From Candidatus Latescibacterota bacterium (lineage in GTDB: Bacteria > Latescibacterota > UBA2968 > UBA8231), in NCBI GenBank assembly GCA_965203175.1, contig OZ241867.1:5664001-5728000 (forward strand): DNA of 64,000 nt. Reading direction: 5' to 3'. Numbering within the stretch: the stretch's first letter is position 1; each line of letters starts with the position of its first letter. This document shows positions 14,044-41,162 of the stretch, one piece after another. The translations under genes were made by a program, and so were the position numbers. The notes beneath the pieces are model-generated. The model was not told the origin of the DNA. It searched no databases and saw only the letters and a program-made list of their open reading frames with translations.

Positions 14044-14047
14044 TCGG

Positions 14048-14431: not shown

Positions 14432-14500
14432 GCCTTCGCATCGGAGAGCTTATTGTACTCTGCATGGGGAATCTCCACTAGGCTTAAATCGAAGTCCAAT
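14428..14500 (-). pseudogene. higB: C-terminal remnant of a HigB toxin
   Basis: Frame reads ..LDFDLSLVEIPHAEYNKLSDAKA* (HigB typically ends in THAEYDK) and its TGA overlaps the higA ATG (ATGA); no room for a full gene. Confidence 0.6.
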
Positions 14501-14534
14501 TTACAGGAGTGAATGTAATACAGTTCGGGAAGGT

Positions 14535-15089: not shown

Positions 15090-15090
15090 T

Positions 15091-16461: not shown

Positions 16462-16499
16462 AAGTCTCTTCCTTGAGATTCTCCATAGGTTTCCCAAGC

Positions 16500-17770: not shown

Positions 17771-17808
17771 CGCCAGCTCCTCTATTTTTGTGAAATCTCG
17801 TCTCAGTC

Positions 17809-19257: not shown

Positions 19258-19258
19258 G

Positions 19259-20731
19259 TTATTTGTTCCACTGTTCGACGAAGGTAGCGGCCAGCACGCA
19301 CGCTAACCCCGGCCCCAAACGTCCCGCCAAATAGCCGGCAATCTCCGCCTCCGTTTTGCCGTCAAAAAGTTCCTTTAATCTCCGATCCTGTGCGGCAAAT
19401 GCATCGCGGGTAATCTGTTCTGTATCCACCAGCCCATTTAAAATCCCGCGCAATTCGCTCAATACATCTTGCGCATCCGGATCCTGCACCCGATTGTGAA
19501 ACTCACCCGGATCTTCTTTCACATTAAACAGCAAATCATCATACCATGTAAAATGAATGTATTTCCAATCACCCTTTCGAATCAGAAACGATCCCGTGCA
19601 ATTCCCCTCCGAATGTGATTCTGTATACGTCCATCCTGGATGTTCACTCGCCGATCCCTCGATCAAGGGCAACAGGGAATGCCCGCGCAGTTCCGGTGCG
19701 AGAACCCCCGCCAGATCCAGCAGTGTCGCCACCAGATCCACATGCGCCATCGGCGTATCGACAACTGCCCCCTGCGGCAGACCCGGCCCGGCCATCACCA
19801 GCGGTACGTGTGCCGCATTTTCATACAAATTGTTTTTATACCACATGCCGTGTTCGCCCAGCGCCTCACCGTGATCCGAGGTATAAATGAAAATGGTATT
19901 TTGCAATTGTCCGGTCGCCTCCAAGGCATCCCACACCTGACCGATATATTCATCCAGTTCTGCAATCATCCCGTAATATCCCATTCGCGCCCGACGGATG
20001 CGATCTTCAGAAATCGGTGAAGCGACCCGTTTAAAATGCCGCATCGCCTGATACACTAGATGTAATTCTTCCAGATCATTTGCTCGGATATCCGGCAAAT
20101 CCATGTCCACTTCGGCATACATATCCCAGTATTTCTGCAAGGCGACAAATTTCGGATGAGGTTCACTCAATCCCAGGTAAAACAGCCAAGGCGTCTCCAG
20201 ATCAAGCGATTCGCCCCGGATAAAATCCAGGGCTACATCCGTCTTCTTGGCATCCTCGTGCCGCTCATTGCGCGGTGCACCGTCTACTCCCTCGCGCTCA
20301 CCTATGCGATAACACGGTGGTCGGCGAAAAAGGGACGTGATGTCCGGCCGCCTGCAGTGCCCGTTGATCACGTCGATTTCTTTAAACCCGCGCGGAAAAT
20401 CATCGTGCAAATCAAACTTCCCGGTGGCCCGGCAATCGTATCCCACCTCACTCAATCGCGTGCCCCAGGTCGGATGGCTGCCGTCCCACACCGTCGAATT
20501 GCAATAAGACCCCACATCCGACGGATACATGCCGGTCATCAAAGAGGCCCGGCTGGGCGCACACACCGGGCTGCCGCAATACGTATTGGTAAAGACCACC
20601 CCATGCTCTGCAATGCGATCCATATTGGGTGTCTTCACAATGGGATGCCCCGCATAACCCGCGTAGCGAAACGCGTGCTGATCGGAACAGATAAAAACGA
20701 TATTCGGTCGTGCCCCAGACAACGCAGCCAT
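19259..20731 (-). CDS. Sulfatase (choline-sulfatase-like, S1)
   Basis: RPNIVFICSDQH, CAPSRASLMTG, PHP, SDHGE.LGEHGMWYK; ATG at 20731 with GGAAGGAG SD. Confidence 0.9.
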   Translation of the reverse strand: MAALSGARPNIVFICSDQHAFRYAGYAGHPIVKTPNMDRIAEHGVVFTNTYCGSPVCAPSRASLMTGMYPSDVGSYCNSTVWDGSHPTWGTRLSEVGYDCRATGKFDLHDDFPRGFKEIDVINGHCRRPDITSLFRRPPCYRIGEREGVDGAPRNERHEDAKKTDVALDFIRGESLDLETPWLFYLGLSEPHPKFVALQKYWDMYAEVDMDLPDIRANDLEELHLVYQAMRHFKRVASPISEDRIRRARMGYYGMIAELDEYIGQVWDALEATGQLQNTIFIYTSDHGEALGEHGMWYKNNLYENAAHVPLVMAGPGLPQGAVVDTPMAHVDLVATLLDLAGVLAPELRGHSLLPLIEGSASEHPGWTYTESHSEGNCTGSFLIRKGDWKYIHFTWYDDLLFNVKEDPGEFHNRVQDPDAQDVLSELRGILNGLVDTEQITRDAFAAQDRRLKELFDGKTEAEIAGYLAGRLGPGLACVLAATFVEQWNK

Positions 20732-20928
20732 CAAAACACTCCTTCCGTGCACATTAATAAAACGTGATCCGGGTCCCCGGCCTTCCCAAAAACCCGTCCA
20801 CTAGGAGCCAGAAGCCGCCGGCGATGAAGTGACCCAAGGTGAGCCTCTATAAAAACAAAGATTTACCTATGGCTGCGCCGTGACTGGCTTGCGTTTTTTC
20901 CGCGGCTGTCAGATATGGACCGCAGCCT

Positions 20929-23568
20929 TCAATAGGCCACTGCCACCGTGCGCAACACCTTGGTCCTCTCCTCGCTCAATCCCCCGGCGTCAACGGCCAC
21001 TCGGAGCAACGCGCAATAGACGCCCGGCGGAACGCGCGCACCCTGCTCGTCTGTGCCGTCCCAAGCGATCTCGTACTGGCCAGTAGTCGTCGAGTGTTGC
21101 TCGGCGAGCTGGCGCATCAGCCGGCCGCTCAAATCGTAGATGGCGACCTCCAGCGGGCCATCGTCGTCCAGACGCACGACCTTGAAGGCGAAGATCGCGT
21201 GGTCGTTGACGCCATCGCCATTGGGCGTAAACGCCGGCGGGCGCACCTCTACGTCGAGCAACAGTTCCCCACGCGTCGGGTCGCCCACCAGCGTCGTTGT
21301 ATTGCCCGCCACCTCGTCGAGCGCGTTGCCCGGATCCACCCGCTGCCAAGTGCCCTCGCCCCTAGCGCTGTGTTGGAACGAGGCACGCATCACCGCACCC
21401 ATGCCAAAAAGCGCGGTGCGAAAGTCGAGGCGCACGACCTCAACGTCCGTGTTGGGCCTAATCTCGGCAAAGGATAGGCGCAAGCTGTCCGCGCTCGTGG
21501 GGATGACCTCGACGCCCTCCATCTCGCGCTCCTCCCCGGCTGGCCCCGCGTACAGCCCCGCAAAACCGAGCGCCATATCCGCCGGTGCGACCAGCAGCAA
21601 CTGGTCAAAGCCAGGGTCGCGCCGGTTGAATTCCGGTCGCACGTACAGGGAAAAGGGACTCTCCACACCCAGCGAATCGACCCTGAACGGCGCAATCTCG
21701 CCCGTCAACCCTTGGGCCACCGGACTGGTAAAATTGAGGCGAATCGCGCGCAACGCGGCGCTAACGTCTGGGTCCGCTGAAAGCATGGTCGCCCGCACCT
21801 TGAGGAACTCGCGCGGGCTAGGCGAGGTAATCGCGCTGCCCGCTGGGGTCTCGTAAGGCTGGCTCCAGCCGCTCCAGTCGTCCCCTTCCACCTCCTCGGC
21901 GACAATCGGCCCCTTGAAGATGTCCAACAGCGTCGGATTGTTGTATTCCTTCTCGGAAATTTCCGTGCCGTCCTTTTTGAAATAGTGCAGCACCTCGCTC
22001 AGCTCGTTGCCCGTGCGCGTCTGCACCAGCACGCTGGTGCCCGGCGGCGTATCGGCATCCCATTCTATCGACAGCAGGTTCCGCCGCCCGCCCAGCCGCA
22101 CTAAGCCCGATTCAAGCCAGACCTCGGGCTGGAGCCCCTGGCCGTAGAGCTGCACCGAAGCGGGAAATCCCCGGTGGCCACCAACGGCTACGATGATTTG
22201 CTCCCACACTAGGCGGAAAAAGCGCGTCTTGATCAGTTCAAAGTCGTGGCCCTCATACTCCTTGCGCGTACTCGACTGCTGGCGGCTGGCCACGGTCGTC
22301 CACTTGAGGCTACCGTCGGCGTTGAGCGCGCCGTCCGAGGCGTCGAGGCGGTAGGAGGGAAAGCTGAAGCGATCGCGGAGCGCTTGACCGCCGTAGGCAA
22401 TGCGGAAGGTATCGATCCAGTACGTCGAACCTAGGTCAAAGCTTATATGGCCTTCAGGGCCGGGAATGGTTTGGCGGTCGAAGGAGAAGATCAGATCCAC
22501 GTAGGTCTGCACGTTGCCATCGATGGTCCGCCCCACCGGCAGCCCTTGAGAGGCAAACACATCGCCGCCCCGGGCCAAGGCGGCAATCATCGCGTCGTCG
22601 CCCTCGTGCCAAACTTCGAGTTCGGCCAGCCGAGGCCGCTCCCAGCGGTAGTAGGAGATTCCGCCCTGCTGGTCGGCGGGTAGTTGCACATAGTCCGCCT
22701 CATCAACCTCGGTCAGCCGCCCGTCGCGCTGCAACTTGTAATAGACGACTGCGCCTCGCTCGGCCGCCGGCAACGCCTCGTACTCCACCTCGCTGACCTC
22801 AAAACCGCGGTCGAAGTCCGACCCCCGCACCACCACCTGCACCAAACGCACTCCGGTGCCGGCGAATTCTTTCTGCGTCACCGAGATCGCCGAAGTCGGC
22901 GGGGCGTTGATCGGCTGATCCGATAGTTCCCGCTCCTCGGCCTCTGCGCTCTCGCCGAGAGAAATTTCCAGCAGCCGCTCGGTCTTGTTCGGCTTCAACG
23001 TGCGCCACACCACATCGAACTCCGGCTCTTCCGAAGAGATGAACTTCTCCGGCACCTCGCCGTCGGAAATCAGCACGTCGTATTGCAGGAAGGGATCGCC
23101 TAGACCTTCCTCGACGAACTTGAGCACAATGCGCTTGGCGATTACCAGCCGACCCAGATCTACTGTAAACCACCACTGCGCCCCCAACTCGGTAGCATCC
23201 ACGACCGGATCAGGCTCCCAGTAGGTGGTCAAGTCCCCGTCAAGCACATGGAGCACGTCGGGCGCGTTGGAACCCGCTTCTATAGCATCTGCAAGCTCGA
23301 TTTCCTCGGCCGCCTTCTCCCGCGCGAGGTCTTCGGGCGGGTGCAGGCGCAAGAAGTGGACGATGTCCTTGGTGGCGTCCGTATTGCGGCGCAGTTCAAA
23401 CGGCGTCACCGTACCGCTTTGATCAATCGTCAGAGTACCCACCGGAAACTCCCAAGCGCGCCAGTGCGCAGCGCGGTCAATGACGAGCTGATCCGCGGTG
23501 AGCCGGTAACCACCCCCTTGGGCATGGACCGCAGCTACCCACAGCAAAACGACGGCGATGTAGCGCAT
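20929..23568 (-). CDS. Secreted protein 'A3': discoidin-like domains plus C-terminal FTPNGD/FlgD-Ig domain
   Basis: Signal peptide MRYIAVVLLWVAAVHA; LDGD..TYW..VDLG; WSGWS; SPSPR; FTPNGDGVND..IYDLSGR..WDG..PG.Y..VAY; AGGAG SD before ATG 23568. Confidence 0.75.
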   Translation of the reverse strand: MRYIAVVLLWVAAVHAQGGGYRLTADQLVIDRAAHWRAWEFPVGTLTIDQSGTVTPFELRRNTDATKDIVHFLRLHPPEDLAREKAAEEIELADAIEAGSNAPDVLHVLDGDLTTYWEPDPVVDATELGAQWWFTVDLGRLVIAKRIVLKFVEEGLGDPFLQYDVLISDGEVPEKFISSEEPEFDVVWRTLKPNKTERLLEISLGESAEAEERELSDQPINAPPTSAISVTQKEFAGTGVRLVQVVVRGSDFDRGFEVSEVEYEALPAAERGAVVYYKLQRDGRLTEVDEADYVQLPADQQGGISYYRWERPRLAELEVWHEGDDAMIAALARGGDVFASQGLPVGRTIDGNVQTYVDLIFSFDRQTIPGPEGHISFDLGSTYWIDTFRIAYGGQALRDRFSFPSYRLDASDGALNADGSLKWTTVASRQQSSTRKEYEGHDFELIKTRFFRLVWEQIIVAVGGHRGFPASVQLYGQGLQPEVWLESGLVRLGGRRNLLSIEWDADTPPGTSVLVQTRTGNELSEVLHYFKKDGTEISEKEYNNPTLLDIFKGPIVAEEVEGDDWSGWSQPYETPAGSAITSPSPREFLKVRATMLSADPDVSAALRAIRLNFTSPVAQGLTGEIAPFRVDSLGVESPFSLYVRPEFNRRDPGFDQLLLVAPADMALGFAGLYAGPAGEEREMEGVEVIPTSADSLRLSFAEIRPNTDVEVVRLDFRTALFGMGAVMRASFQHSARGEGTWQRVDPGNALDEVAGNTTTLVGDPTRGELLLDVEVRPPAFTPNGDGVNDHAIFAFKVVRLDDDGPLEVAIYDLSGRLMRQLAEQHSTTTGQYEIAWDGTDEQGARVPPGVYCALLRVAVDAGGLSEERTKVLRTVAVAY

Positions 23569-23581
23569 AAGTCTTCTCCTC

Positions 23582-25498
23582 TTAGTACGCCAGCGAGACG
23601 ATGCGCGAGCGGGCCTTGGTGCCACCGTCGGTTTCCACTTCGAGACGCAGGACATACAGCCCAGGATTGAGTAAAGCACCCGTTCCGTCCCGACCATCCC
23701 ACTCTGCGGCAAACTGGCCGCTCTGCGCCGGACCGCGAAAAACCTCGCCGACCCGCGTCCCCCGCAAATCGTAGAGCACCACCGCTACCTCGGCATTTCC
23801 CGTCACATTCAATAGTTCGTATTCAATCCGCACTGCGTCGTTGATCTGGTCTCCGTTGGGCGTGAACGCCGCTGGCAAGAGTCTGAGCGCACCGACCACC
23901 TGCCCGGCGATATGGGTCAGCCCCACGCTCAGCGTATTGCCCTCGACCAACTCAACCACTTCGCCCGGCGTCACCACTTGGCGCACCTCCTGCGGTCGAG
24001 TGCTATCGTACACGCGGCCCGAGAACAAGGTCCCAAACTTGAACACCTCGCAGCGAAAAACCACCTCTATCAGCTCCCCATCGCGCGCTTGGTCTATCCG
24101 CGGAACGCCGACCTCAAAGCCGCGCTCATCGAGCCGCCGCACCTCAAAGGCAACCTCTTCGCCGCTGTAGCGCACTGCGTCAATGCCCTCCGCCTGAGTC
24201 GGTGTGTCAATCTCAATGGTGTCGAAACCCAAGTCCTCCGCTTCTAGTCGCGGCAGCAGCATGTAGGTAAACTCCGTCGCCACACCCGTGGTCGCCAAGA
24301 CGGGCGCAATCTCGGCCAGAACCAAGGAGGCCATCGGCGGCCTAGACACGGCAAACTGCACGAAGTTCAGCCGTCCCCCTGCCTCTACTGTGGAATGGAA
24401 GTTGGCCCTGATCTGCACGAACTGACGAGGTTGCGTCCCCTGCATCGGAGCACCGCCCAACGCCAGGTCATAGGCCGCACTCCAGCCCTCCCAGTTTTCA
24501 GTGTCGGGCGTGATACCGGCCTGCTGGGCTCTCTCCAGCCGATTGTACGACCGCAGCGTCAAAGGCCGCCCCCGGGTATTCAGCCGAGTCCGCTCATCGC
24601 CGCGGAACGTGTGGCGCCAATAGGTATTCGGATCGCTGTCGTCGCCAGCGCGCATACTTAGCTCGATTTGCGCACCGGGATCGACCTGGCTGCCCCAACT
24701 TAGTTCGCCCAGCGCCGCGCGCCCACCTAAATCGAGGACATTGGACACGTAGCGCGCCGTCGGTGTAAAGCCCTTGCCGTATATCTCAAACTCGGCGATT
24801 TCCCAGATGCCTTGAGTGTTTTCGTGCGCTTCAAAGAGCATGCGGCGAATCGGCACCGGAGGCAGTTCCAATTCGACCACCGAAGTCGTGTTCTCGCTAG
24901 CCCGATGCACGATGTCGAAGTCAAATAAGGAACCGCGCGTACCCGCAGTATACTCGCGCGTGCCTTCCTTGAGCGGATCGCCGTCGCTGGTGCCGATGAT
25001 AAAGCGCTGTAGAAAGCGCTCTTCCTCAAAGCGCTCGCGTGGATAGAACTTGACGCGCTCGACCGTGAAGTTGCCCCCGAACTCGAAAATCAGGCTCTTG
25101 TTCCGCACACCAATGCCCGAGGTCGTCCAATGTCCGTCGCCCAAGAAGACGGTCTCGACGTCTTCGTCCCACAACACGGCCTCGGTATCGCCGCTTCGCT
25201 CCCAACCTCGCCAGACCAGCGTCTGCACTCGCCCTCCGCGTTCTTTGAGGCGCGGCGTCAGGTTTACCGACGGATCCAGTTGCTCCGGCTCAACAAAGTC
25301 CGCATCGATCTTCAGCAATTCGATTTGGCCGTGCTGCGCCGATTCCACTCCCTCCCAATCGAGCTGCACAAACTCCACTCCCTCGGCCAACTCCGGCACC
25401 GGCAGCGACGAACCGCCAATCCGATAAATCGTCAGCGCGTCTGCCCCGCTAGTCAGCCAAGCGAGCATCAGCACAAGTCGGATACAGGTCTTTAGCAT
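23582..25498 (-). CDS. Secreted protein 'A2', paralog with C-terminal FTPNGD/FlgD-Ig domain
   Basis: Signal peptide; EIAEFEIYGKGF.P...Y.S..LDLG; WEGWS; FTPNGDQIND..LYDLRG..WDGRD..PGLY..LAY. Confidence 0.75.
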   Translation of the reverse strand: MLKTCIRLVLMLAWLTSGADALTIYRIGGSSLPVPELAEGVEFVQLDWEGVESAQHGQIELLKIDADFVEPEQLDPSVNLTPRLKERGGRVQTLVWRGWERSGDTEAVLWDEDVETVFLGDGHWTTSGIGVRNKSLIFEFGGNFTVERVKFYPRERFEEERFLQRFIIGTSDGDPLKEGTREYTAGTRGSLFDFDIVHRASENTTSVVELELPPVPIRRMLFEAHENTQGIWEIAEFEIYGKGFTPTARYVSNVLDLGGRAALGELSWGSQVDPGAQIELSMRAGDDSDPNTYWRHTFRGDERTRLNTRGRPLTLRSYNRLERAQQAGITPDTENWEGWSAAYDLALGGAPMQGTQPRQFVQIRANFHSTVEAGGRLNFVQFAVSRPPMASLVLAEIAPVLATTGVATEFTYMLLPRLEAEDLGFDTIEIDTPTQAEGIDAVRYSGEEVAFEVRRLDERGFEVGVPRIDQARDGELIEVVFRCEVFKFGTLFSGRVYDSTRPQEVRQVVTPGEVVELVEGNTLSVGLTHIAGQVVGALRLLPAAFTPNGDQINDAVRIEYELLNVTGNAEVAVVLYDLRGTRVGEVFRGPAQSGQFAAEWDGRDGTGALLNPGLYVLRLEVETDGGTKARSRIVSLAY

Positions 25499-25511
25499 AC
25501 TGTTGCCTACC

Positions 25512-28391
25512 TCACAGACTCGCGAATATCGACAGAAACGCCAATCCCGCGACCCGCGTCTCGCGCTCTCGCCCGGTCACTTCCAAAGAACGCCTATCAA
25601 AGCGCAACCCGAGCTGGGTCGTCAATCCGTAGCCTAGATACTCTCGCTGATTGCTCAATTGCGCCGCCCACACCGTGCCGCGGAAATCTCCCGTCAGCAC
25701 GTTTTCCACCAGGACCTTTTCGTCCTGCAGCAATTCAAAAAACAGCCGCTGCTCAAACCCCAGTTCAAGCTCTGAATCCCGCATCACGGGAAAGCGGACC
25801 AACAGCGACCCAATCCCATCCCAAGAACGGCGGCGACGCTCGGCCAAGGAAAAGGGAGATTGGCTAAGGAATTCGCTTTTGAAGCGGGGCAAAATCGCCA
25901 CTGCGCCCCACGCAAAAACGCCGTCGATCTTGTCGATCAACCCCACAAAACCAGAGGTCTCGCGGCCATTGCGCCCCAACGGCCCCAGCGCACCAAGTTG
26001 CGCGTCGCGCTGGTGCCACCAGTCCCATTTGAAGCGATGCTTAGTCTTCCAGCGCCGCGGACTGGCGTACTGCCACTCAGCGTAGAACGTATTGATCCAA
26101 GTGTCCTCGGCCGCCAGCAAATCAGGCACGGCAATGTGCTGCCCGCTCGTCTGCCCAGCCGCCCCGAATTCGAGCGTCGGCACGACCCACTGCGACAGCG
26201 GATCGGGGATGGTGTCTGCGGCTTTCTTCAGCATGTCAAAGACCCGCACTCGACCGCGGTTAGGCCAATCCCGTTCAAAAGTAAAGAGACCGTAGGCAGT
26301 GTGATTTTTGCGGTCAACCTGGCGCATGTCCTGACGCAGGTAGCCGGCAGAGAGACGGATTTCCGGGTTGACCTCCACGCTGGCGTAGGCGTTGTAGCCC
26401 CAGTGGTCCTTCTTGTAGGGATAGTCGGGCAAATCGTCGTTTTCAAAGCGCTCGGCCCAGCCGTTGTTGTTGAGGTCAATGCCAAAGAGGAACTCCGGCC
26501 GGTCCGAGTGGTGGCGCAGAAAAGGCTCTTCATAGTCGGGGAAGAAATTCTCCCGGTCGCCGTTGCTGTTCTGATTGAAGTCGGAGATGAAGTCGCCGTT
26601 CTCGTCGTACCCTGGGAAAACCGCTGGGTCGGGCACGCCGTCCGAGCGCACCTGGAAGCCGCTCAGCGCAGTCGATTGCGGCGGCACCAGTCCGCCCTGG
26701 AAAAACCGCTTCTGGTCGGGGTGGCGATCCTGATCGTCGTTGTCCTCGACGAAATCGTAGAGCTTGTCGGTGGCTTCGGGCGAGTAGTCAACCAAGCCGC
26801 GGCTGTCTACCGGCTTGAAGCTAGTGGCATAGGCGTCGTCCATGCCAAAGCCTTCGAGCGAGAAGCGCCAAGGATCTGCGTGCCGCACGAGATTGAACAG
26901 CCAGCCAACCGCGTGCTCGTCGCCTTGGATCCCCGAAAACGAGCGATGCGATTCGCGCGTCGTCGAAGGGAATTGGCGGTACTGGGTACTGACGTTGAAT
27001 TCCCCATACAAGTCGAAGCCCCACCAGTCGCGCACTTCAGTAGTAATACCGGCGATCTGCGAGGCGGTCGGCAAGCCGTAATCAAAGACGACTTCGCGCG
27101 GATTGAGCTGATTCTTGACATTGCCAGCGGCCCGCGTCACCACCAAAAACTCCGGGATGCCGATGCGGCTGTTCTGCCGGTCGGAGGCCACTTCGATCCG
27201 ATAGTCATTGGCCAGCACGAAGCGGAAGCGCACGTTTTTGACGCGGGTGATGGCGTCGTCGGCCTCGTCCAACCCCAGATCCAACCGGCGCTGCAAGGCC
27301 AAGCGCAAGGTGCCCTCCTCGCTTTCGCCCTCTTCGGCAGCCAACGCGTACTGCAGCACAATGCTCTCCGCCCCATCGGCTCGCAAGAACCCACCGCGCT
27401 CCTCCCCGCCCTCTATCACCGGCGCAAAGCCAACGCTGCTGCCCGTGAAGGTGGTGTCTTTAAAAACCATCCGCACGCCGCCTTCAACCGGCACCTCGCG
27501 CTTAAGCGCCGTAGTGATCTCCACCTCCGTACCGAACAACACCGGCCCGCCCTCGCCGTCTGCGGGCGAATCATCGGACAGCCGCACGATCAGCTTGTTG
27601 AGTCGTCGGCCTAGCTGCCCAGTCGTCAGCACGCCTTTGAGTGGATTGCCCTCAAAACTCTCGCGATTGCCGGCACCATTGTGAGCATTGACCAAGGTCA
27701 GACCCAAAGTCGCGTTGGCCCCCAGATCGGCCTCCAGACGCCCGGCGATCAAACTAGTAAAGTTATCCTGCGAGGCCGTCGGAATATCCGGGTCAATCTC
27801 GACGATAGGCAGGCTTGGGCGCGAGAACAAACCAGTAAAGCGCAAATGCCGCGCCGCAAAGCTCGTCACGACCCCATTAAAGCCAACCTTGCGGAAGGTC
27901 ATCGGCGTCAGGGTAGCGAAAATCTCGTCGCCGATCATCAGCGAGTAGTTGTAGTCGCCGCTCGCATCCGAGGAGATAATCAGCCGGTTGAACCAAGTGG
28001 CGTAGCGCCGCTCTTTGGTCAACTGGCTGCTCTCGACCGTGCGCGCCTGCGTCTGTCGCCAGTCGTACACCAGCCAGCCGCGCGAGATCAGCTTGCCATA
28101 GGTATCGTAGAAATACGTGCCCTCTTGGTTGCGGTCGATGTAACGCCGGTACGGCTCCGTGGCGTAGTTCGTGTAGCGCCACTGGCGGCGGCCGTACTCG
28201 TCGAACAACTCCTGCGGCATGTACCAGCGCATGACCGTGGGATCCAACGCCCCCATCAGCACGCTTGGCCCTTGGGCATTAAAGCGGACTTCGCCCCTTT
28301 CCTGCCGCCCCAAGCGGTAGCCGTAATCCGTCTGCGCTCCGGCCTGCAAGGCCAGTGCCAAGACCAACGCTATGTTAGTTGTCCAACGCAC
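25512..28391 (-). CDS. Large exported protein 'B2', probable outer-membrane beta-barrel with Asp-rich Ca-binding-like region
   Basis: Signal peptide; amphipathic strands; EDNDDQDR, DENGDFISDFNQN, GIDLNNN..FENDDLPDYPYK; ends AFLSIFASL. Confidence 0.6.
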   Translation of the reverse strand: MRWTTNIALVLALALQAGAQTDYGYRLGRQERGEVRFNAQGPSVLMGALDPTVMRWYMPQELFDEYGRRQWRYTNYATEPYRRYIDRNQEGTYFYDTYGKLISRGWLVYDWRQTQARTVESSQLTKERRYATWFNRLIISSDASGDYNYSLMIGDEIFATLTPMTFRKVGFNGVVTSFAARHLRFTGLFSRPSLPIVEIDPDIPTASQDNFTSLIAGRLEADLGANATLGLTLVNAHNGAGNRESFEGNPLKGVLTTGQLGRRLNKLIVRLSDDSPADGEGGPVLFGTEVEITTALKREVPVEGGVRMVFKDTTFTGSSVGFAPVIEGGEERGGFLRADGAESIVLQYALAAEEGESEEGTLRLALQRRLDLGLDEADDAITRVKNVRFRFVLANDYRIEVASDRQNSRIGIPEFLVVTRAAGNVKNQLNPREVVFDYGLPTASQIAGITTEVRDWWGFDLYGEFNVSTQYRQFPSTTRESHRSFSGIQGDEHAVGWLFNLVRHADPWRFSLEGFGMDDAYATSFKPVDSRGLVDYSPEATDKLYDFVEDNDDQDRHPDQKRFFQGGLVPPQSTALSGFQVRSDGVPDPAVFPGYDENGDFISDFNQNSNGDRENFFPDYEEPFLRHHSDRPEFLFGIDLNNNGWAERFENDDLPDYPYKKDHWGYNAYASVEVNPEIRLSAGYLRQDMRQVDRKNHTAYGLFTFERDWPNRGRVRVFDMLKKAADTIPDPLSQWVVPTLEFGAAGQTSGQHIAVPDLLAAEDTWINTFYAEWQYASPRRWKTKHRFKWDWWHQRDAQLGALGPLGRNGRETSGFVGLIDKIDGVFAWGAVAILPRFKSEFLSQSPFSLAERRRRSWDGIGSLLVRFPVMRDSELELGFEQRLFFELLQDEKVLVENVLTGDFRGTVWAAQLSNQREYLGYGLTTQLGLRFDRRSLEVTGRERETRVAGLAFLSIFASL

Positions 28392-28394
28392 TGT

Positions 28395-29987
28395 TCACAG
28401 CTTTTCCAAACTGCCCTCGACAATTTCCACCGGATACTTATTCCGCAAATTGCGCACGAACCGCACGTAATCTCTTTTCGATTTGTCGATCCGCACGTAG
28501 GCCCGAGCGCGGCGCTGCGATTCGGCGTTGTACGGGATCTGCTCGCGCGTGCGCTCCAGGACCTTGAAGACCGAATAGCCCCGCTCGGTCTTCAACGGCC
28601 CACCCACCTCGCCGACGGCGACTTCCTGCACAGCAGCAGACAGTATGGGAAATAATCCTTGGGTATAGGCATTGAGCTGCATCTGGCCGCCGTGGTGCAA
28701 GCTGCCCTCGCGCCGGGTATGGCGCTGAGCCAACGCTGCGGCATCGCCCCCCGCGCGCAACTCGTCTCCCAAGCGCTGGGCCAGCGAATCCGACGCCACC
28801 AAAATCTCGACGATGGTCGTACTCTCGGGCCGAGCGAATTTTTCGGGATGCGCGTCGTAGAAGTCGCGCGCTTCTTCTTTGGTTACACTCACGTACTGGT
28901 CAACCTCCCGCCGACGCAATGCACTAAGCATCAACTCCTCGCTCTTAAACGCCACGGTCTCCTTGAAACGCTCGTCCTCTGCTAGACCAGCCGCGTCGAT
29001 CTCAGCACTTACGAACAGGTCGGGCAGCACTCGGCGGTGCAAAACCTCGGCCACATGCGCACTGTCAGCCGCCTGTAAACTCCTGCCGGTGAGCAGCTCG
29101 TACGCCGCCAAAAAACCACTGACAGTGAGTTCGCCGCCCCGATACGCGCAGAGCACTTCGGTTTGGTCCGCCATGACCCCATTCTCGACGAGCCGCTGGA
29201 TCGCCGCCGGGCGCGGCACCGGTGCGTACGCTTGCAGGAGCGAATCGCTAAGTGCCTGCATCCGCTCCTGGCGCTTTTGCACCGTCAGCTCTTCGACGAT
29301 AATCCGCTCCGACGCGCTCAGCGGCGCTGGAATCTCGTCGAGCACTTTGTAGATTACGTAAAAGTCCTCGTGGCCGAACACTTCGCGCACCGGCGCGGAA
29401 ACGTCCCCTATCGCCAGATCGAGCACCTGCTCGACCGTCTCCTCCGACATCTGATCCCGCGTCTGGTAGATGCCGGTGTCGCCCCCGCGCGCGGCGGTCT
29501 TCTCGTGAACCGAGTGCGCACTGGCCAACTCGTGAAAATCGTCCCCCGCAGCGAGCTGATCGGTGATTGCCCCTACTTCCTCCAAACTCTCGACCATAAT
29601 GCCGCCCAAGCGCAGAGCGCGGTGCCGACCGCTCTCTCGGTAGTACCGCTCTATTTCCTCGGGAGTAAGTTCGATCTTAGCGACGACCTCGCGCTCCATG
29701 TACAGCGCCATCAGCCGAGCGCGTTTGAAGCGGGCCAGTTCGCCTTTGAACCAACTGTCTTCAGCCATATTGGCGGCGTCCGCTTCGCGCAGGAGCAGCT
29801 TTTTGTCGATCAGGCTTTCGAGCACTTGGCGCTGTCCTCCTTCTTTCATCCCAGCGGGAATCCGCGCGTCAAACTCCCTAAACTCCGACGCAGTAATCGG
29901 CTCGCCATCCACTCGAGCCAGCACCAGCTCTTCAGGCTCTTGGGCGCAACCCAGAGCTGCAATCGCTAGCAAGCAAAAGCGCAACAC
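28395..29987 (-). CDS. Parvulin-type peptidyl-prolyl isomerase lipoprotein (PrsA/SurA/PpiD-like, two rotamase domains)
   Basis: GTG at 29987, lipobox ALGC; LARVDGEPIT; F.ELA..HS....A.RGGD.G; second domain ILV...A.LAQRH...GG...VGEVGGP.KT..GYSVFKV. Confidence 0.85.
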   Translation of the reverse strand: MLRFCLLAIAALGCAQEPEELVLARVDGEPITASEFREFDARIPAGMKEGGQRQVLESLIDKKLLLREADAANMAEDSWFKGELARFKRARLMALYMEREVVAKIELTPEEIERYYRESGRHRALRLGGIMVESLEEVGAITDQLAAGDDFHELASAHSVHEKTAARGGDTGIYQTRDQMSEETVEQVLDLAIGDVSAPVREVFGHEDFYVIYKVLDEIPAPLSASERIIVEELTVQKRQERMQALSDSLLQAYAPVPRPAAIQRLVENGVMADQTEVLCAYRGGELTVSGFLAAYELLTGRSLQAADSAHVAEVLHRRVLPDLFVSAEIDAAGLAEDERFKETVAFKSEELMLSALRRREVDQYVSVTKEEARDFYDAHPEKFARPESTTIVEILVASDSLAQRLGDELRAGGDAAALAQRHTRREGSLHHGGQMQLNAYTQGLFPILSAAVQEVAVGEVGGPLKTERGYSVFKVLERTREQIPYNAESQRRARAYVRIDKSKRDYVRFVRNLRNKYPVEIVEGSLEKL

Positions 29988-29991
29988 AGCC

Positions 29992-32772
29992 TCACTCCAG
30001 ACCAGCGAATACCGTGATAAAGGTCGTGGTTTCATTCTTGCCCTTGTCGTCGGTTGTGAAAACGCCCGGCCGGTCGCTATCCTCAATCACCCGTTCGCTC
30101 AGGATACGGCCAAAGCGCAGGCCCGCTTGCGTGGTCAGCCGGTACCCCTGGTAATCGGAAGTCGTCGACAGTTGCACCGCGATGTGGGTCGAGCGCCAAT
30201 CCCCTGTCTCCTGCAAAAGCCCCACCGCCCGCAGCTCATTCTCGTCCTGCACCCGGTCGCTAAACCACAACTGCTCCACGCCGGATTCTATAACCGTGCG
30301 CCGCATGACCGGCAAGCGGGCTATCAACTGCACGGTCAGCGCCCATTCCTCGCGCCGCTCCTCGTCGACGACAAAGGGCGTCTGCCGCAAAAACTCGCTC
30401 TTGCACCTCGGCTGCAAGTCAAAGCGGCCGAGGCCGTAGCTGTAATCCACCTTGTTGATCAGCCCTAGGAAACTCGCGGTACTTTCTAGCGGTCGCCCAA
30501 TGCTGTCTCGCGGGTCCTCGGCGTTCTGCTGGAAATGCTCCCACTTGAGCTTGTTGACCACGTTCAACCCTTCGATGCCCTGATAATCGAATTGCGCGTA
30601 CGCAGTGTTGACCCAAGTGTCCTGCGCCGCCAAGATGTCGCGCACCACCGGCTGAATCGGCGCACCGACGAAGGGTGTCGGTTCGCGCCGGGCGTCGGGA
30701 ATAGTGTCCTTGGCCTGCTTGAGCATGTTGAAGACCCGCAGGTTCCCCAAGTTCGCGTAGTCCCGATCCAGCGTGAACATCGCGTAATTGGTCTCGTTAA
30801 AGGCGTCGGTCGCTTGGGACTCCTCGTCCGTGCGCCCAATGGTCAGCCGCATATCCGGCGCGAGGTGGATGCCGCCGAAGAGATTGTACCCCTGCCGATC
30901 CGGCTTGTACGGATAATCGGGCAGATCGTCGTCTTCGAAGCGGTCGATCCAATTGTTGTTATTCAAATCAATGCCAAAGAGAAATTCCGGCCGATCGACG
31001 TTGTAGCGCAGAAACGGCTCGTCGTAGTCTGGAATGATATTGGCCGCGGTAGCGTTGTCGTTTTGATTGAAGTCAGAGATGAAGTCGTTGTTCTGGTCCC
31101 AGCCGGGAAAAATCGCCCGGTCGTTGGTCGAGCCAAAGCGAATCCAATCGGGGAAGCGGTCTTGGTCGTCGTTGTCTTCGACGAACTCGTACAAATGCCG
31201 CTGGGTATTGTCGTATTGCACCTCGCCCGTAGCACTGACCAAGAAGGCCGTCGTCGAATAGGCTTCGTCAATGGCGTAGGCTTCGCCGTAGAGGAAGTAG
31301 GGAAACACATTGCGCGAGACATTGAAGTACCAGGCGTCGGACCCCTCGAAGGAAACCGCGTGCTCTTCGCCCTCGTTGAACAGCGCGGCATTGGGAAACT
31401 GGAAATAGCGCTTGTTGCGGTCCCACTCGCCGTAGAAATCAAAGCCGAGGACCCCAGTGCCCTCAATAGTGAAGCCGCCGACTAGATTGGCCGTCGGCAG
31501 GCCGTAGGAAAACTCGATCCGCTGCAAGTTCGTGATGTCCGCGACATTGCCCTCGGCCCGCCGCACCGCAATCAACGCCGGTTGCGCAGCGTCAATCACC
31601 TCGGCAGTCAATGGCGGAGGCGGCACGGCGCGCAAGCCCGTCTGGCGGTCGGACCACATCTCGACCTTAAAGTCGTTGGCCAGCACGTAATTGAAGTCCA
31701 CCGCGACAATCGTCGTCGGGTCTGGACCGACATAACCCGGATCGTTGAAGTCGTAGTTGACGATGATCCGCTCTGGGCCATCCGCAGCCAAAAAGCCCGG
31801 ACGCCGGAACCCGCCGAAGATGACCGGCCACTGCGAGCCGGGCCGCACCACCTCCTGCAAGGTGGAAACCGTCTCCTTGCCGGTGTCGAAGTCGCGGCTG
31901 GTGATCCGTACGTCGTGGCTAAACAGGGCCGCGCCCCCTTCGTTATCTTCGGGCGAGTCGTCGCTCAGGATCACCGCAATCGCCGTCAGCGGTGCCGTGC
32001 TCTGCCCAGCAGTGAGGCTGCCAGCAACCAAATCGCCGGTGAACATGTCGAGCAGTGTATTGCCATTGCTGGCGTCCATCACTTGGGCACCGACCTCGAC
32101 GAAATCACCTACCTGGAACGTCGCTCGCCCACCAAATAACGAGGTGATATTAGTCTGCGTCACCGGCTCGGTAATCCCGCCCGAAAGCTGGGTGGAGCCG
32201 CGGATCGGCTCGCTGATGCGCGAGGCGAGGATCGTCGCCTGATACTTGTCCGAGGCAAAATCCACCTGCACCCCGTTGAAGTCCGGCTTGGAAAACGTCA
32301 TCGGCGTCAGCGTCGTGCGAATCCGGTCGCCAACCGTAATCGCGTAGTTGTACTGACCCTGCGAATCGCCGCTGATGGTCACCGCGTTGAACCAGCGATT
32401 GAAGCGCGTGCTCTGGAAGATGCCGCTGCCCAAGGGCTGCGGCTGGAACTGACGCCAGTCGTAGATCAGCCAACCGCGCGTAGTAAAATTGCCATACACA
32501 TCGTAGAAGTAGTCGCCCTCGCGGGTAGTGTTGACGTAGCGCTCATACGGAGTGCGGGCGTAGTTGGAGTACTCCCATTGACGCCAGCCGTAGTCCACGA
32601 AGAGTTCCTGCGGCACGTACCACTTTTTGACCGCCGGATCGAGTGCACCAAAGAGCACGCCCGGGCCAGTCGGCTCAAAGCTGACGCCCCCGCCGCGCTG
32701 GACGTTGGTCTGGCCTCGGGCCGAAACGCCCACTATCAGCACCAGTCCCAAGATGACGAAGTATTTCTTCAT
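29992..32772 (-). CDS. Large exported protein 'B1', paralog of 25512-28391
   Basis: MKKYFVILGLVLIVGVSARG signal; GALDP..WY.PQEL, RGWL.YDWRQ, TLTPMTF, LSDDSP, YGLPTA, FVEDNDDQDR, DRPEFLFGIDLNNN shared with B2; ends TFITVFAGLE; alternative start 32781. Confidence 0.6.
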   Translation of the reverse strand: MKKYFVILGLVLIVGVSARGQTNVQRGGGVSFEPTGPGVLFGALDPAVKKWYVPQELFVDYGWRQWEYSNYARTPYERYVNTTREGDYFYDVYGNFTTRGWLIYDWRQFQPQPLGSGIFQSTRFNRWFNAVTISGDSQGQYNYAITVGDRIRTTLTPMTFSKPDFNGVQVDFASDKYQATILASRISEPIRGSTQLSGGITEPVTQTNITSLFGGRATFQVGDFVEVGAQVMDASNGNTLLDMFTGDLVAGSLTAGQSTAPLTAIAVILSDDSPEDNEGGAALFSHDVRITSRDFDTGKETVSTLQEVVRPGSQWPVIFGGFRRPGFLAADGPERIIVNYDFNDPGYVGPDPTTIVAVDFNYVLANDFKVEMWSDRQTGLRAVPPPPLTAEVIDAAQPALIAVRRAEGNVADITNLQRIEFSYGLPTANLVGGFTIEGTGVLGFDFYGEWDRNKRYFQFPNAALFNEGEEHAVSFEGSDAWYFNVSRNVFPYFLYGEAYAIDEAYSTTAFLVSATGEVQYDNTQRHLYEFVEDNDDQDRFPDWIRFGSTNDRAIFPGWDQNNDFISDFNQNDNATAANIIPDYDEPFLRYNVDRPEFLFGIDLNNNNWIDRFEDDDLPDYPYKPDRQGYNLFGGIHLAPDMRLTIGRTDEESQATDAFNETNYAMFTLDRDYANLGNLRVFNMLKQAKDTIPDARREPTPFVGAPIQPVVRDILAAQDTWVNTAYAQFDYQGIEGLNVVNKLKWEHFQQNAEDPRDSIGRPLESTASFLGLINKVDYSYGLGRFDLQPRCKSEFLRQTPFVVDEERREEWALTVQLIARLPVMRRTVIESGVEQLWFSDRVQDENELRAVGLLQETGDWRSTHIAVQLSTTSDYQGYRLTTQAGLRFGRILSERVIEDSDRPGVFTTDDKGKNETTTFITVFAGLE

Positions 32773-32788
32773 AGCACCCATTTTCCGT

Positions 32789-35050
32789 TCAATATGCCAC
32801 CACAACCGCGGCGACCGCTCTAGCTCGGCCCGTCTTGGCGTCCAACGCGACGCTGAACACGTAATTGCCCGGCGGCACCAACTGTCCCGCGTCGTCGCGT
32901 CCATCCCAAAGCCGGGCAAAGCGCCCACTCTGATCCAGCGCGTCGTACAAATGCCGCACCGGCCGACCGGCCAGATCGAAAATCGCAACCCGCAGCGGCG
33001 TGGGGCGGCCCACATTGGTCAGGTCGTATTGCAACTCGGCTTGGTCGTTGACATCGTCCCCATTGGGAGTAAAAACCGGCGGCTGAGCGCGCACGTTAAT
33101 CAGCAGTTCGCCGGAGATGGGTACTTGCACCGACAGATTGCCCTCAAAAGGCGTACCCAGCGCCTGCGTGTCCGGGTCGCCCTCCCCCAAATCGGCCGCA
33201 TTGCCAGCCACTACACTCTGCCCCAACTGACCCTCGGATGCGGTGTTAAACACCTGGCCGCTGAACGTGGTGCCGAAGCGCAGAACCGCGTTTGCAAAAC
33301 TCACCCGCAACTCCGTGTCGTCCTCGCCCACAATCGGGAACTCAATGGCAAAGGCATCGTCGGCTACCTCTACAACCGCAAAGTCGCCGCGCACCACTGG
33401 CAACTCGTCGAGCATCGCGCCGCTGAAATCAGCTTCCAACACATCGCCCTCGGGTGGGTGTATCCGCACCGCTCCGACCCGTTCCACCCGGAGCGGAGTG
33501 GCGATCCGCAAGCGGTTAAAACCCCGATCCTGACCAGTGCGAAACTTGCTCCGCACCGCGTAGGTGAAGTCCGTCTTCTCGCCCAAGGCTGCGCTGCGGG
33601 GGCCGATCTCGGCGATCAATTCCTCGGCAAAGGGCGATGGCAGCACGTCAAAGGAAAGCCCTCCAACGCCCGTGGCCGCCTCGAAGTCGTCGCTGAAGAA
33701 CTCGATCATAAACTGGAAATAGCGCCTCGGGCTTGGCGAGACGATGGGCCCACCCGCGCCCTCGGTGCCCAAGGTCTCCGGAAGGACGATACTACTCGGG
33801 GAATAGGGCGGTGACCACGCGCTCCAGTTGCTCACGTCGTTGCGGATCGTCGCCCGGTCGCCGCGTGGAAGTTTCTTGTAGTCGGCCTCGCTCAACGTCA
33901 CCTGCTCCCGCTCCTCCTGCGACAGCGTATTAAACGCCTGTACCGCGTCGCGCAAATCTACTTCCTCGTTGTCGAGGACCTCCGCAACTAGCGCCTGCAG
34001 GCCCTCGTCTTCGATATCTTTGGCGAATTTCCACGGCACCCCCACTTCTCCCGTGCCTAAGCCGCTGCTGATCCCAGCGCCACTGCCCCCAGCCCCACCG
34101 GACTGCAACCCAACATTGCCCCCACCGACGCGGAAGATCTTCTCGCCAGGCCGCACCTTGTTGAATTCCACCGGCTCGGGATCAATACCTGTGCGCGTGC
34201 GCACCGCAATCCGCGAGAGCTGCGGATCGCCGACTTGCTCCTGCACCCAGCGCACATTGCCCAACAGCGCCAGATCGCCAAAGTCAAAGATATTGGAGAT
34301 ATAGACGGCCTCGGGCACAAAGCCCGTGCCAAAGACCTGGAACTCGGCAATGTCAAAACCCAGCGCCGTCAGGGACTTGAGCCGCACGAAGCGCACGTAT
34401 TGCGGCGGGATGCGGATATCGACGACCGCCTCTTCGTTTTGACCCTCTAGCGCCACACTCGTGCGGATGGGCACCCCCTCGCGCTGAGTGTCCGGCGTAC
34501 CGTCGTTGATGAAGATCTCAAAGCTGCGCATGAAATCGTTTTGGAAGGGGAAATTCGGCGCGGGGAATTCGGGCGCGGCGTTGCGCGGAAAGAAGCGGAA
34601 GCGATTGACGCCAAAGCGCGCGCCCAAGTCCAAGTCGATGATCAGCCCCAAAACCTGGGCACTTTTGGCCCCGGCACTCAAGCGCAGATCGAGTCCACTC
34701 TGGCCGTCGTTGTCGATGAGCTTGGCCAGTTCGCCGCGAACGTTGAGGTTGTTGGGCGAAGTGATCGAACCGCCGCGCGACTCGGTGTTGGCCCCGAGGG
34801 CGATGTTTAGCGTGGTATCGGCGCGCTGGGGAAAAATCCAGTCCGCAAAATTAGCGGCTGCAAAGTCGATAACGCCGCCGGGCGCGTTGGTGTTCTCAAC
34901 GCTTTGGGCACTGCGAATGACCTTGGCTTGGATCTCGCCGCCACCATCGCGCCAACTCAGTCCGCTCGCACCGACGACGATGGTGTCGGCAGCAGCGGGC
35001 AGGACGCTCAAGGCGGCGATGAAGACGGCGCAAAGAAGGGGATATTGCAT
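32789..35050 (-). CDS. Secreted protein 'A1', paralog with C-terminal FTPNGD/FlgD-Ig domain
   Basis: Signal peptide; LIDND..DLDLG..RFVRL..IAEFQVFGTGFVP; RTRTG; WSAWS; SPSPRRYFQ; FTPNGDDVND..IFDLAGR..WDGRD..PPGNY..VAY. Confidence 0.75.
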   Translation of the reverse strand: MQYPLLCAVFIAALSVLPAAADTIVVGASGLSWRDGGGEIQAKVIRSAQSVENTNAPGGVIDFAAANFADWIFPQRADTTLNIALGANTESRGGSITSPNNLNVRGELAKLIDNDGQSGLDLRLSAGAKSAQVLGLIIDLDLGARFGVNRFRFFPRNAAPEFPAPNFPFQNDFMRSFEIFINDGTPDTQREGVPIRTSVALEGQNEEAVVDIRIPPQYVRFVRLKSLTALGFDIAEFQVFGTGFVPEAVYISNIFDFGDLALLGNVRWVQEQVGDPQLSRIAVRTRTGIDPEPVEFNKVRPGEKIFRVGGGNVGLQSGGAGGSGAGISSGLGTGEVGVPWKFAKDIEDEGLQALVAEVLDNEEVDLRDAVQAFNTLSQEEREQVTLSEADYKKLPRGDRATIRNDVSNWSAWSPPYSPSSIVLPETLGTEGAGGPIVSPSPRRYFQFMIEFFSDDFEAATGVGGLSFDVLPSPFAEELIAEIGPRSAALGEKTDFTYAVRSKFRTGQDRGFNRLRIATPLRVERVGAVRIHPPEGDVLEADFSGAMLDELPVVRGDFAVVEVADDAFAIEFPIVGEDDTELRVSFANAVLRFGTTFSGQVFNTASEGQLGQSVVAGNAADLGEGDPDTQALGTPFEGNLSVQVPISGELLINVRAQPPVFTPNGDDVNDQAELQYDLTNVGRPTPLRVAIFDLAGRPVRHLYDALDQSGRFARLWDGRDDAGQLVPPGNYVFSVALDAKTGRARAVAAVVVAY

Positions 35051-35056
35051 GGCTGT

Positions 35057-35085
35057 TTGTTACGCTTTTCCGCCGGACTTGTCAA
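35057..35085 (-). promoter_or_regulatory. Putative sigma70 promoter of the six-gene operon (leaderless)
   Basis: TTGACA (35085-35080) - 17 nt - TAACAA (35062-35057) - 6 nt - ATG (35050); no SD; the -10 match is weak. Confidence 0.45.
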
Positions 35086-35352
35086 GAATCCGCCGCGCAG
35101 ACGGCAGGGCAGGCCAGCCAGCGAACTGCCAAAAAGTTGAAGGCCGATCTCGGCCGGGCTTCGTACTCCCCCAAACAGCGAAAGGAACCTAAGCAACCCA
35201 TTGATGGATACCATTCGACACAGCTTGCGCCGACTACGCACCGCCCTATCAGACTGTCCGCTCTGGCATGGATATTGCAGGACACGCACCGGAAGCCGCC
35301 TGTTGGTGGTTTTTAGTCCTTCATTTATATTCCCCCACTGAGGAATCCAGCC

Positions 35353-35685
35353 ATGAGCGAAAGCACCGACCCCCAAACTCGTGCGGTCCCTACCCCTGAA
35401 GAAATGCCTTGGAGCATTAGCTATTTGCGCGACGATATTAAAGATCTGCGCACCCAAGTAGGTGCCATACATGGGCGCATCGACGAAACCAACAAGCGCA
35501 TCGATGAGACCAACCGCTCATTGGGCAAACGCATCGACGAAACCAACAAGCGCATCGACGAGACCAACCGCTCATTGGGTGAACAAATTCGCGCACTCCA
35601 TAAGCGCATGGACACCTATTTCCTTTGGATGATGGGCACGTTGGTGGCCATCACCAGCGTCCTCATCGCCGTCATCAAGCTCTGA
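35353..35685 (+). CDS. Small coiled-coil protein with C-terminal membrane anchor (DUF1640/CCDC90-like architecture)
   Basis: 110 aa; RIDETN repeats; C-terminal hydrophobic FLWMMGTLVAITSVLIAVIKL; GAGGA SD. Confidence 0.7.
   Translation: MSESTDPQTRAVPTPEEMPWSISYLRDDIKDLRTQVGAIHGRIDETNKRIDETNRSLGKRIDETNKRIDETNRSLGEQIRALHKRMDTYFLWMMGTLVAITSVLIAVIKL
35476..35580 (+). repeat. In-frame 54-nt tandem duplication containing shorter RIDETN sub-repeats
   Basis: cgcatcgacgaaaccaacaagcgcatcga(t/c)gagaccaaccgctcattggg occurs twice, starting at 35476 and 35530. Confidence 0.9.
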
Positions 35686-35860
35686 CCCGCCACCCATCGG
35701 CCGGCCCCTCGAACGCGGTCGAGCTTACCAGTCGTCAACCATGCGACCGGCCTCGTCGAGGGATCGCATGATCGGCAACAGTACTATCGCGACGATGGCC
35801 GCACCGTAGCGTTCCAGTTGGCGCGGCCTATCCCTTCGATGCGTCCCAATTATAGCCCGT

Positions 35861-41108: not shown

Positions 41109-41162
41109 TGCGTATATATCTGCTGAATGGTATCGTTAGTGGCCATCAACCAACAGACAACT

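Follow-up and report, generated by a model that had tools for sequence, protein, structure and literature searches.

The stretch of DNA analyzed here (the window; 64,000 nucleotides, positions 5,664,001 to 5,728,000 of contig OZ241867.1 from a Candidatus Latescibacterota bacterium) carries at 20929..35050 a six-gene operon that encodes three related exported proteins (A1, A2, and A3), two very large paralogous proteins predicted to be outer membrane barrels (B1 and B2), and a parvulin-type peptidyl-prolyl isomerase (PPIase). It represents a cell envelope module, present in multiple copies, that occurs in part of the Latescibacterota. The genome holds 62 B genes spread over 40 loci, and all 62 lie within three genes of a protein with the C-terminal domain (CTD) that is common to the A proteins. 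The B proteins form a genuine, unnamed family of predicted outer membrane barrels, very large in size and restricted in taxonomic range, and the A CTD resembles the type B sorting domain of the system for type IX secretion (T9SS). We propose, at about even chances, that T9SS-exported A proteins dock at the surface on their cognate B proteins, which would play a PorP/SprF-like role, and that A and B form binding or uptake complexes.

The six open reading frames (ORFs) are all on the minus strand in the order A1-B1-PPIase-B2-A2-A3, and with the starts adopted here they are separated by gaps of ~3–13 nt (Table 1). A first-pass annotation, made earlier from the DNA letters alone, had described this co-oriented operon, and it is real. 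The paralogy it assigned to B1 and B2 extends over their full length, with 41% identity end to end (396/972 columns, E = 0). Identity to A1 is 33% for A2 and 28% for A3, and an alignment of the three proteins has invariant columns in both regions said to be common to them, a W..WS..Y block and a C-terminal FTPNGD..ND ... WDG.D..G ... PG.Y ... AY pattern. The discoidin-like block also attributed to all three is confined to A3, where Pfam F5_F8_type_C scores 40 bits within an N-terminal insert missing from A1 and A2. A1–A3 start with hydrophobic signal sequences, and B1 and B2 have recognizable signal peptides. A scan of 19000..36500 for sigma-70 promoters and intrinsic terminators returned background levels (6 versus 4.7 expected and 14 versus 17.6, respectively) with no site at a gene boundary. 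Each of the six genes is partly covered by contig pieces at 90–95% identity from four RNA libraries; the contigs come from relatives and such libraries can contain DNA, and they are at most a weak hint that loci of the A-B type are transcribed.

Type B sorting domains start with an FTPNGD..ND-type motif. The CTD of A1–A3 runs to the last residue. With the type B model TIGR04131 the CTDs of A1, A2, and A3 score 19.8, 17.0, and 22.8 bits (cut-off 35), and with CHU_C (PF13585) they score 23.7, 24.9, and 25.3 bits (cut-off 27), all below threshold. Pfam matches to FlgD_ig at the C termini are about at the cut-off (A1, 27.2 bits; A3, 30.6 bits). Many A2 homologs elsewhere have precomputed PF13585 and/or PF13860 (CHU_C/FlgD_ig) assignments, and one is named gliding-motility-associated C-terminal domain protein by NCBI. 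The AlphaFold2 model of A2 (mean predicted local distance difference test score (pLDDT), 75.1) is a chain of beta domains in which a jelly-roll precedes immunoglobulin (Ig)/FN3-like domains, and its Foldseek matches are generic multi-domain beta ectodomains only. This model is the sole source for the jelly-roll as a common A domain. A1 falls in a class of ~750-residue A proteins located directly upstream of the first barrel.

The genome is a single contig of 6.58 Mb (completeness 93.2%, contamination 6.5%), and the counts given for it derive from simple ORF calls (5413 ORFs) and hidden Markov models built for this analysis. An A-type CTD is present in 258 proteins and is C-terminal (within 15 residues of the end) in 247. 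With the CTD removed, 169 of the 247 group as one body family that includes A1–A3 (the A family). Of the A-family CTDs, 93/169 carry the motif F[ST]PN[GND]D versus 0/78 of the others, whereas NPF is present in 27/169 versus 72/78. The last residue is Y in all 169 A-family proteins and mostly K, R, or E in the others. Random samples of 20 CTDs from each group were compared with the curated models. All 20 non-A CTDs sampled matched type A (TIGR04183), 18 of them above its threshold, with no match to type B. Among the 20 from the A family, 15 matched TIGR04131 at E ≤ 0.001 and 8 matched type A weakly, with none over either cut-off. On these motifs and profiles, the CTDs of the genome split cleanly into a type-B-like class, the A family, and a canonical type A class. 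The type B signature that the first-pass annotation read in the A CTD stands as far as the motif and the TIGR04131 matches go, and the curated cut-offs are missed.

The core T9SS genes named in that annotation were sought in the genome and found in part. SprA is over its cut-off at ~618 bits (pieces of 490 and 124 bits within one 2133-residue frame) and so is PorU at 632.5 bits; the adjoining PorV-like gene reaches 147.5 bits, below the 250-bit cut-off. The outer membrane core of SprA, PorU, and PorV is represented, with the PorV-like gene sub-cut-off, and because 18 of the 20 sampled non-A CTDs are bona fide type A, a working T9SS is implied. The models for the motor proteins GldL and GldM (TIGR03517, TIGR03513, PF12081) gave no match. 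This miss says little either way because the control genomes also lacked a match above the cut-off, although one had a sub-cut-off match to PF12081. The GldK model returned 20 partial match pieces, mostly to the FGE-sulfatase-like C-terminal part, in open frames of ~235–440 residues. One of these pieces adjoins a B locus, and GldK-type matches fit a sulfatase-rich lifestyle. PorP/SprF (TIGR03519) was not found over its cut-off in this genome, and none of the 168 genomes searched across the phylum passed it either; a complementary distribution of PorP/SprF and B was rejected as a test since 0/168 offers no discrimination. No PorP/SprF-like gene is linked to A1–A3; the adjacent barrels belong to the unrelated B family.

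B1 and B2 have no match in Pfam or NCBIfam, and 32 aligned B members share no Pfam family at E ≤ 10. PorP/SprF (TIGR03519/PF11751) did not match B1 or B2 and, at the level of Pfam, did not match any of the 32 members at E ≤ 10. The TonB-dependent receptor/SusC signature (Plug, TonB_dep_Rec) has no match in B1 or B2, and the 32 Plug matches of the genome all lie elsewhere. We considered B as a general substitute for TonB-dependent receptors and ruled it out, as the genome has 31 canonical genes whose Plug domain exceeds the cut-off. B2 has 354 homologs at E ≤ 0.001 (7999 candidates scored), with 120 of them listed, all free of Pfam domains; the small number with a name are called "hypothetical protein" and come mostly from Latescibacterota. 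Searched by profile, a library of 1.84 billion representative proteins yielded 950, 690, and 324 B clusters (defined at 50% identity) at E ≤ 1e-3, 1e-10, and 1e-30, respectively. The family spans ~880–1050 residues.

AlphaFold2 was used to model B2 from a 32-sequence alignment (mean pLDDT, 66.2; predicted template modeling score, 0.62). The model is all-beta, with ~33 long strands over residues ~136–550 and 660–959. The N-terminal region 11–136 and an Asp/Asn-rich segment at 550–650 are strongly conserved and are not confidently modeled. At E ≤ 0.001 Foldseek gave 30 matches in the PDB, virtually all to outer membrane barrels, with MtrB first (E = 4.4e-8) and then SlpA/SDBC, LptD, TonB-dependent transporters, and FimD. 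The TM-scores are only ~0.2 and the identities 6–9%, and VIA-align gave Z scores up to 13.7 at a root mean square deviation (rmsd) of ~10 Å; these are generic barrels, and no specific family can be named. The same holds for FhaC, TamA, and FimD (TM ~0.2, rmsd ≥ 10 Å) and for the TonB-dependent transporters, which appear solely as generic barrels. In the ESM Atlas a stored B homolog (P0038) falls in unnamed clusters only, and the nearest named family, DUF6029 at 0.89, is a lead only. With a signal peptide, predicted all-beta strands, and a C-terminal strand, B1 and B2 have the features expected of outer membrane barrels, and the modeling favors the barrel fold originally suggested for them.

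A-family genes and B loci are closely linked in the genome. Within three genes of a B gene lie 104 of the 247 CTD proteins, and 100 of the 104 belong to the A family; of the 78 CTD proteins outside that family, just 4 are near B. An A-family gene is immediately upstream of, and co-oriented with, 42 of the 48 first-in-locus B genes. In a tree of the 62 B paralogs, the first and second barrels of tandem pairs form two sister clades with mirrored branching, and the B1 (first-B clade) and B2 of the window each pair with the matching barrel of a locus at 2.88 Mb. Mirrored A and B trees were dropped as a sign of interaction because the same pattern would result if entire loci were duplicated. The operon, first presented as an isolated oddity, belongs to a system that comprises 40 loci, 62 barrels, and 169 A paralogs, and its order, A-B-PPIase-B-A-A, is a variant of the common A-B-B class in which the parvulin is shifted between the barrels.

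Related loci in other genomes have the same organization. When one genome was scanned for each species, at least 636 loci with B relatives were detected, and the best 79 were analyzed. An A gene is within three genes in 73/79, a PPIase is present in 60/79, and two or more B genes are present in 62/79. Of the 75 loci having an upstream gene, 67 have a co-oriented A as the gene directly upstream of the first B. The exact B-PPIase-B order occurs in 10/79, two of which (L048 and L079) have B proteins only 71% identical. The layout of the operon is far beyond chance; the module recurs 40 times in the genome and in 73/79 of the best related loci elsewhere. The records of related loci are mostly labeled Latescibacterota, with some Gemmatimonadota and two Planctomycetota (labels as deposited). 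Across the 168 genomes of the phylum, B was detected in 107 and the A body (searched with the CTD removed, E ≤ 1e-5) in 95. All A-positive genomes are B-positive, 12 genomes have B without A and their B matches are weak and divergent, and both are missing from three families (56 genomes in all). This co-occurrence is a pattern and not a statistical test, since related genomes are not independent samples. The conserved synteny and co-occurrence of A and B raised in the first-pass annotation are borne out at both levels. The window stretch itself is present in runs labeled sponge metagenome.

The PPIase has two parvulin domains (Rotamase_2, 71.4 bits with a cut-off of 27; Rotamase, 64.2 bits in two stretches with a cut-off of 21.7; Rotamase_3, 56.5 bits with a cut-off of 22.5) and a lipobox-like LGC, as anticipated for a two-domain parvulin lipoprotein between B1 and B2. 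Its start is likely the GTG at 29987, which gives a 530-residue protein and a 4-nt gap to B1. It is under every NCBIfam equivalog cut-off, including that of SurA (NF008038, 31.4 bits versus 394), and SurA_N_3 scores 19.4 versus 27.2. The enzyme belongs to the kit, as had been supposed, with 25 PPIase paralogs adjoining B loci in the genome in addition to its presence in related loci.

The PPIases are one of six large recurrent families among the 244 co-oriented neighbors of B loci other than A and B. The others are a ~300-residue secreted family (28 copies; no Pfam match, although one 317-residue relative matches CBM9_1), tetratricopeptide repeat (TPR) proteins (26 copies; of six inspected, three have a lipobox-like Cys and three a hydrophobic, transmembrane-like start), lipoproteins of ~255 residues (15 copies), FG-GAP/ASPIC proteins (13 copies), and DUF6785/DUF6784 proteins (12 copies). 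Smaller groups comprise MR/MLE enzymes (5), sulfatases (4), DHDPS-type and HpcH aldolases, ATP-binding cassette (ABC) solute-binding proteins, and MalK-like ATPases, and ExbB/ExbD genes adjoin divergent triple-B loci. In the window, a co-oriented run of two sulfatase genes and an MR/MLE gene (16610..20752) starts 176 nt downstream of A3; these may be catabolic genes tied to the locus. Members of the ~300-residue family (e.g., genome positions 6456369–6457307) have an N-terminal DG..DEW-type motif and a strikingly conserved C-terminal tail, TAVE..SWG.IK..F, a possible sorting signal. The DUF6785/DUF6784 family is also found beside B in several related loci and may belong to the A-B system. FG-GAP/ASPIC (UnbV) proteins, two of them in the window, also flank related loci in other genomes. 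The loci with divergent B proteins (genome positions 5640422–5652493, 6156224–6172901, 6504836–6522871, and 2791416–2812676; three are triple barrels) adjoin TPR proteins of 1080–1090 residues, some also with DUF4159, ExbB, and two ExbD genes, and a type A CTD is found in a small-family protein of each triple-barrel locus. These loci look like a separate sub-type that is possibly energized.

Table 1. Features of the window (positions are those of the window)
Feature	Position	Strand	Description
A1	32789..35050	-	753 aa; signal peptide, all-beta, type-B-like T9SS CTD at residues ~655–753
B1	29992..32778	-	928 aa from MGAMKKYF start; exported; first-position predicted barrel of tandem pair
PPIase	28395..29987 or 28395..30038	-	two-parvulin lipoprotein with weak SurA-like N-terminal region
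B2	25512..28391	-	959 aa; exported; second-position predicted barrel
A2	23582..25498	-	638 aa; jelly-roll, then Ig/FN3-like beta domains, type-B-like CTD (model)
A3	20929..23568	-	879 aa; additional N-terminal F5/8 type C (discoidin) domain, type-B-like CTD
Sulfatases	19259..20752 and 17809..19257	-	Pfam Sulfatase, 177.6 and 145.9 bits
Enolase-superfamily (MR/MLE) enzyme	16610..17770	-	Pfam MR_MLE_C, 153.9 bits
Low-GC stretch	12001-16000		guanine-cytosine (GC) fraction 0.467–0.473 versus ~0.60 elsewhere
ATPase in low-GC stretch	15091..16497		AAA_15/AAA_21 (AbiEii-like)
ORFs in low-GC stretch	12976..14043 and 14535..15089		no Pfam match
Pentapeptide-repeat protein	35861-37399	+	512 aa; divergent from the upstream region of the operon
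FG-GAP/ASPIC (UnbV) proteins	37639-39306	+	
	62565-63980	-	
DUF6785/DUF6784 proteins	41127-43067	+	~646 aa
	52550-54493	-	~646 aa
CARDB protein	45108-48110	-	1000 aa; CARDB, leucine-rich repeats, Peptidase_M66-like region

The low-GC stretch lies just downstream of the co-oriented run that follows the operon and may be a mobile or defense island.

The A-B module has counterparts among known systems. Passages in PMC9143113 and PMC12618676 describe type B CTD cargo as often encoded beside a PorP/SprF-like barrel, requiring this barrel for secretion, and binding it on the surface. As in SprB-SprF of Flavobacterium johnsoniae and PG1035-PorP-PorE of Porphyromonas gingivalis, an A cargo gene adjoins an outer membrane barrel gene and the cargo CTD opens with the FTPNGD..ND-type motif. 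TPR-containing envelope proteins near B loci are comparable to PorE, TPR being listed among its domains in a passage of PMC12773672. Unlike PorP/SprF, the B proteins are ~3 times larger (~880–1050 residues versus ~300 positions of the TIGR03519 model) and have no sequence similarity to it, the A CTDs score below the curated type B cut-offs, and the barrels are paired as first and second B with a dedicated parvulin. The scale also differs, with 62 barrels and 169 cargo genes compared to the 12 type B substrates of F. johnsoniae (abstract of PMC9143113 or PMC12618676).

SusC/SusD-type polysaccharide utilization loci of Bacteroidota are similar in being multi-copy, in combining a ~1000-residue barrel with surface binders, and in their catabolic and importer flanks; the B proteins differ in lacking a Plug/TonB-dependent domain, their partners are T9SS cargo and not SusD lipoproteins, and carbohydrate-active enzymes (CAZymes) and regulators are few. 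The PPIase shares two parvulin domains, a weakly SurA-like N terminus, and an envelope location (signal peptide or lipobox) with SurA and the periplasmic parvulins, but it is a lipoprotein, is below the equivalog cut-off, and has 25 paralogs tied to B loci. MtrB, LptD, and SlpA match B in predicted fold class and size range, whereas the B context has no cytochrome, LptE, or SLH and the similarity is generic. A full-text literature search, with supplementary files outside its reach, found no paper joining Latescibacter with type IX secretion and no description of this layout, in keeping with the first-pass view that it is undescribed. The titles and abstract openings listed from the Latescibacter literature on outer membrane and polysaccharide name no such system, and passages of a 2015 genomic survey (PMC4454575) give only nonspecific porins and TonB-dependent import. 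Cargo with a cognate barrel downstream of the T9SS is a known principle; the giant-barrel family, expanded here with its cargo to 62 barrels and 169 cargo genes, appears to be undescribed.

The reading that we favor begins with export of the A proteins by Sec and then by the T9SS, with the divergent type-B-like CTD as the putative export signal. At the surface an A protein would stay docked on the giant B barrel encoded by the neighboring gene, where Bacteroidota use the much smaller PorP/SprF. Barrels of this locus class come as a conserved first-B/second-B pair, and the two-parvulin lipoprotein may be a SurA-like periplasmic chaperone for the giant barrels or their cargo. The A-B complexes would be surface binding devices whose jelly-roll and Ig-like domains probably catch organic substrates, and the wide B barrel is possibly an entry channel. 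Docking is favored because type-B-like cargo is tied to an adjacent, larger barrel in a phylum without detectable PorP/SprF, and type A cargo has no such tie. The first-pass annotation had offered export or anchoring of A by B. Since the genome has its own SprA, PorU, and PorV-like gene, a role for B as dock or anchor, and possibly as channel, is more probable than one as exporter.

A complex prediction for B1 (residues 30–928) and the A1 CTD (residues 655–753), run on 25-row alignments without controls, gave no answer (score 0.00) and speaks neither for nor against binding. Several observations weigh against docking. The A CTDs miss the curated type B cut-offs, and 8 of the 20 sampled A-family CTDs match type A weakly. 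The T9SS motor proteins GldL and GldM have no match here, as is the case above the cut-off in the control genomes. Confidence in the B model is moderate (mean pLDDT, 66), and its two most conserved segments are unmodeled. More than 10 genes separate 37 of the 169 A-family genes from any B, and A can therefore be encoded without a neighboring barrel. Glycoside hydrolases and regulators are few in the B loci, unlike classical polysaccharide utilization loci, and a general importer of the B type is not needed because 31 canonical TonB-dependent receptors are present.

The genes co-oriented with B loci bear on what docked complexes might do. Sulfatases, MR/MLE enzymes, aldolases, ABC solute-binding proteins, and MalK-like ATPases hint at uptake. 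A tentative extension of the docking reading, which we think more doubtful than docking itself, is that the A-B module is a new kind of outer membrane machine for nutrient acquisition, functionally a counterpart of SusC/SusD. T9SS-delivered, CTD-docked A proteins would be substrate-specific lids or arms on a heteromeric pair of giant barrels that import large substrates such as sulfated glycans, and each of the ~40 loci would have its own substrate, SurA-like chaperone, and TPR lipoprotein. Slightly less probable is an import machine of the SusC/SusD kind and nothing else, in which the B proteins are substrate channels, the A proteins are binders anchored in some other way, and the CTD has no pairing role. 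The massive, diversified expansion (62 B, 169 A) is typical of nutrient-uptake families, and catabolic enzymes and ABC importer genes in co-oriented runs, ExbB/ExbD beside divergent triple-B loci, the discoidin domain of A3, and the jelly-roll of the A2 model all suit this explanation. The B proteins, however, lack a Plug or TonB-dependent receptor signature, CAZymes and regulators are few in the loci, and import alone leaves unexplained why only the type-B-like CTD class adjoins B (other CTD proteins, 4/78).

It is improbable that B is a dedicated exporter of the usher or two-partner kind, moving A across the outer membrane through its CTD independently of SprA with the parvulin as chaperone. 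The gene order of cargo, barrel, and chaperone, the failure to detect GldL and GldM, and the presence of FhaC, TamA, and FimD among the structural matches point in this direction, but those matches are generic, SprA, PorU, and a PorV-like gene are present, the 18/20 bona fide type A CTDs indicate a working T9SS, and 37 A genes are remote from any B. We give an equally low probability to a variable surface coat or adhesin array that serves, e.g., attachment, interaction with a sponge or other host, or phage evasion and transports nothing. The best fold matches include the S-layer barrel SlpA/SDBC, the Ig/FN3-like A bodies resemble adhesin ectodomains, the paralogs are extremely diverse, and the stretch occurs in runs labeled as sponge metagenome. 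The family is nevertheless also found in metagenome-assembled genomes with non-sponge record titles (e.g., a deep lake), the loci have co-oriented catabolic and importer genes, and a coat does not obviously need 40 separate loci.

If the docking reading is correct, part of an uncultured phylum devotes ~8% of its genome to the A-B system, estimated from 169 A proteins of ~725 residues and 62 B proteins of ~930 residues in 6.58 Mb. The principle of type B cargo with a cognate barrel would reach beyond Bacteroidota, and outer membrane biology would gain a new large-barrel architecture in which the T9SS is coupled to unnamed giant barrels. The A-B system would then be a natural and highly diversified test set for type B cargo sorting and retention, and a candidate explanation of how these bacteria, seen in sponge-metagenome runs, capture complex substrates.

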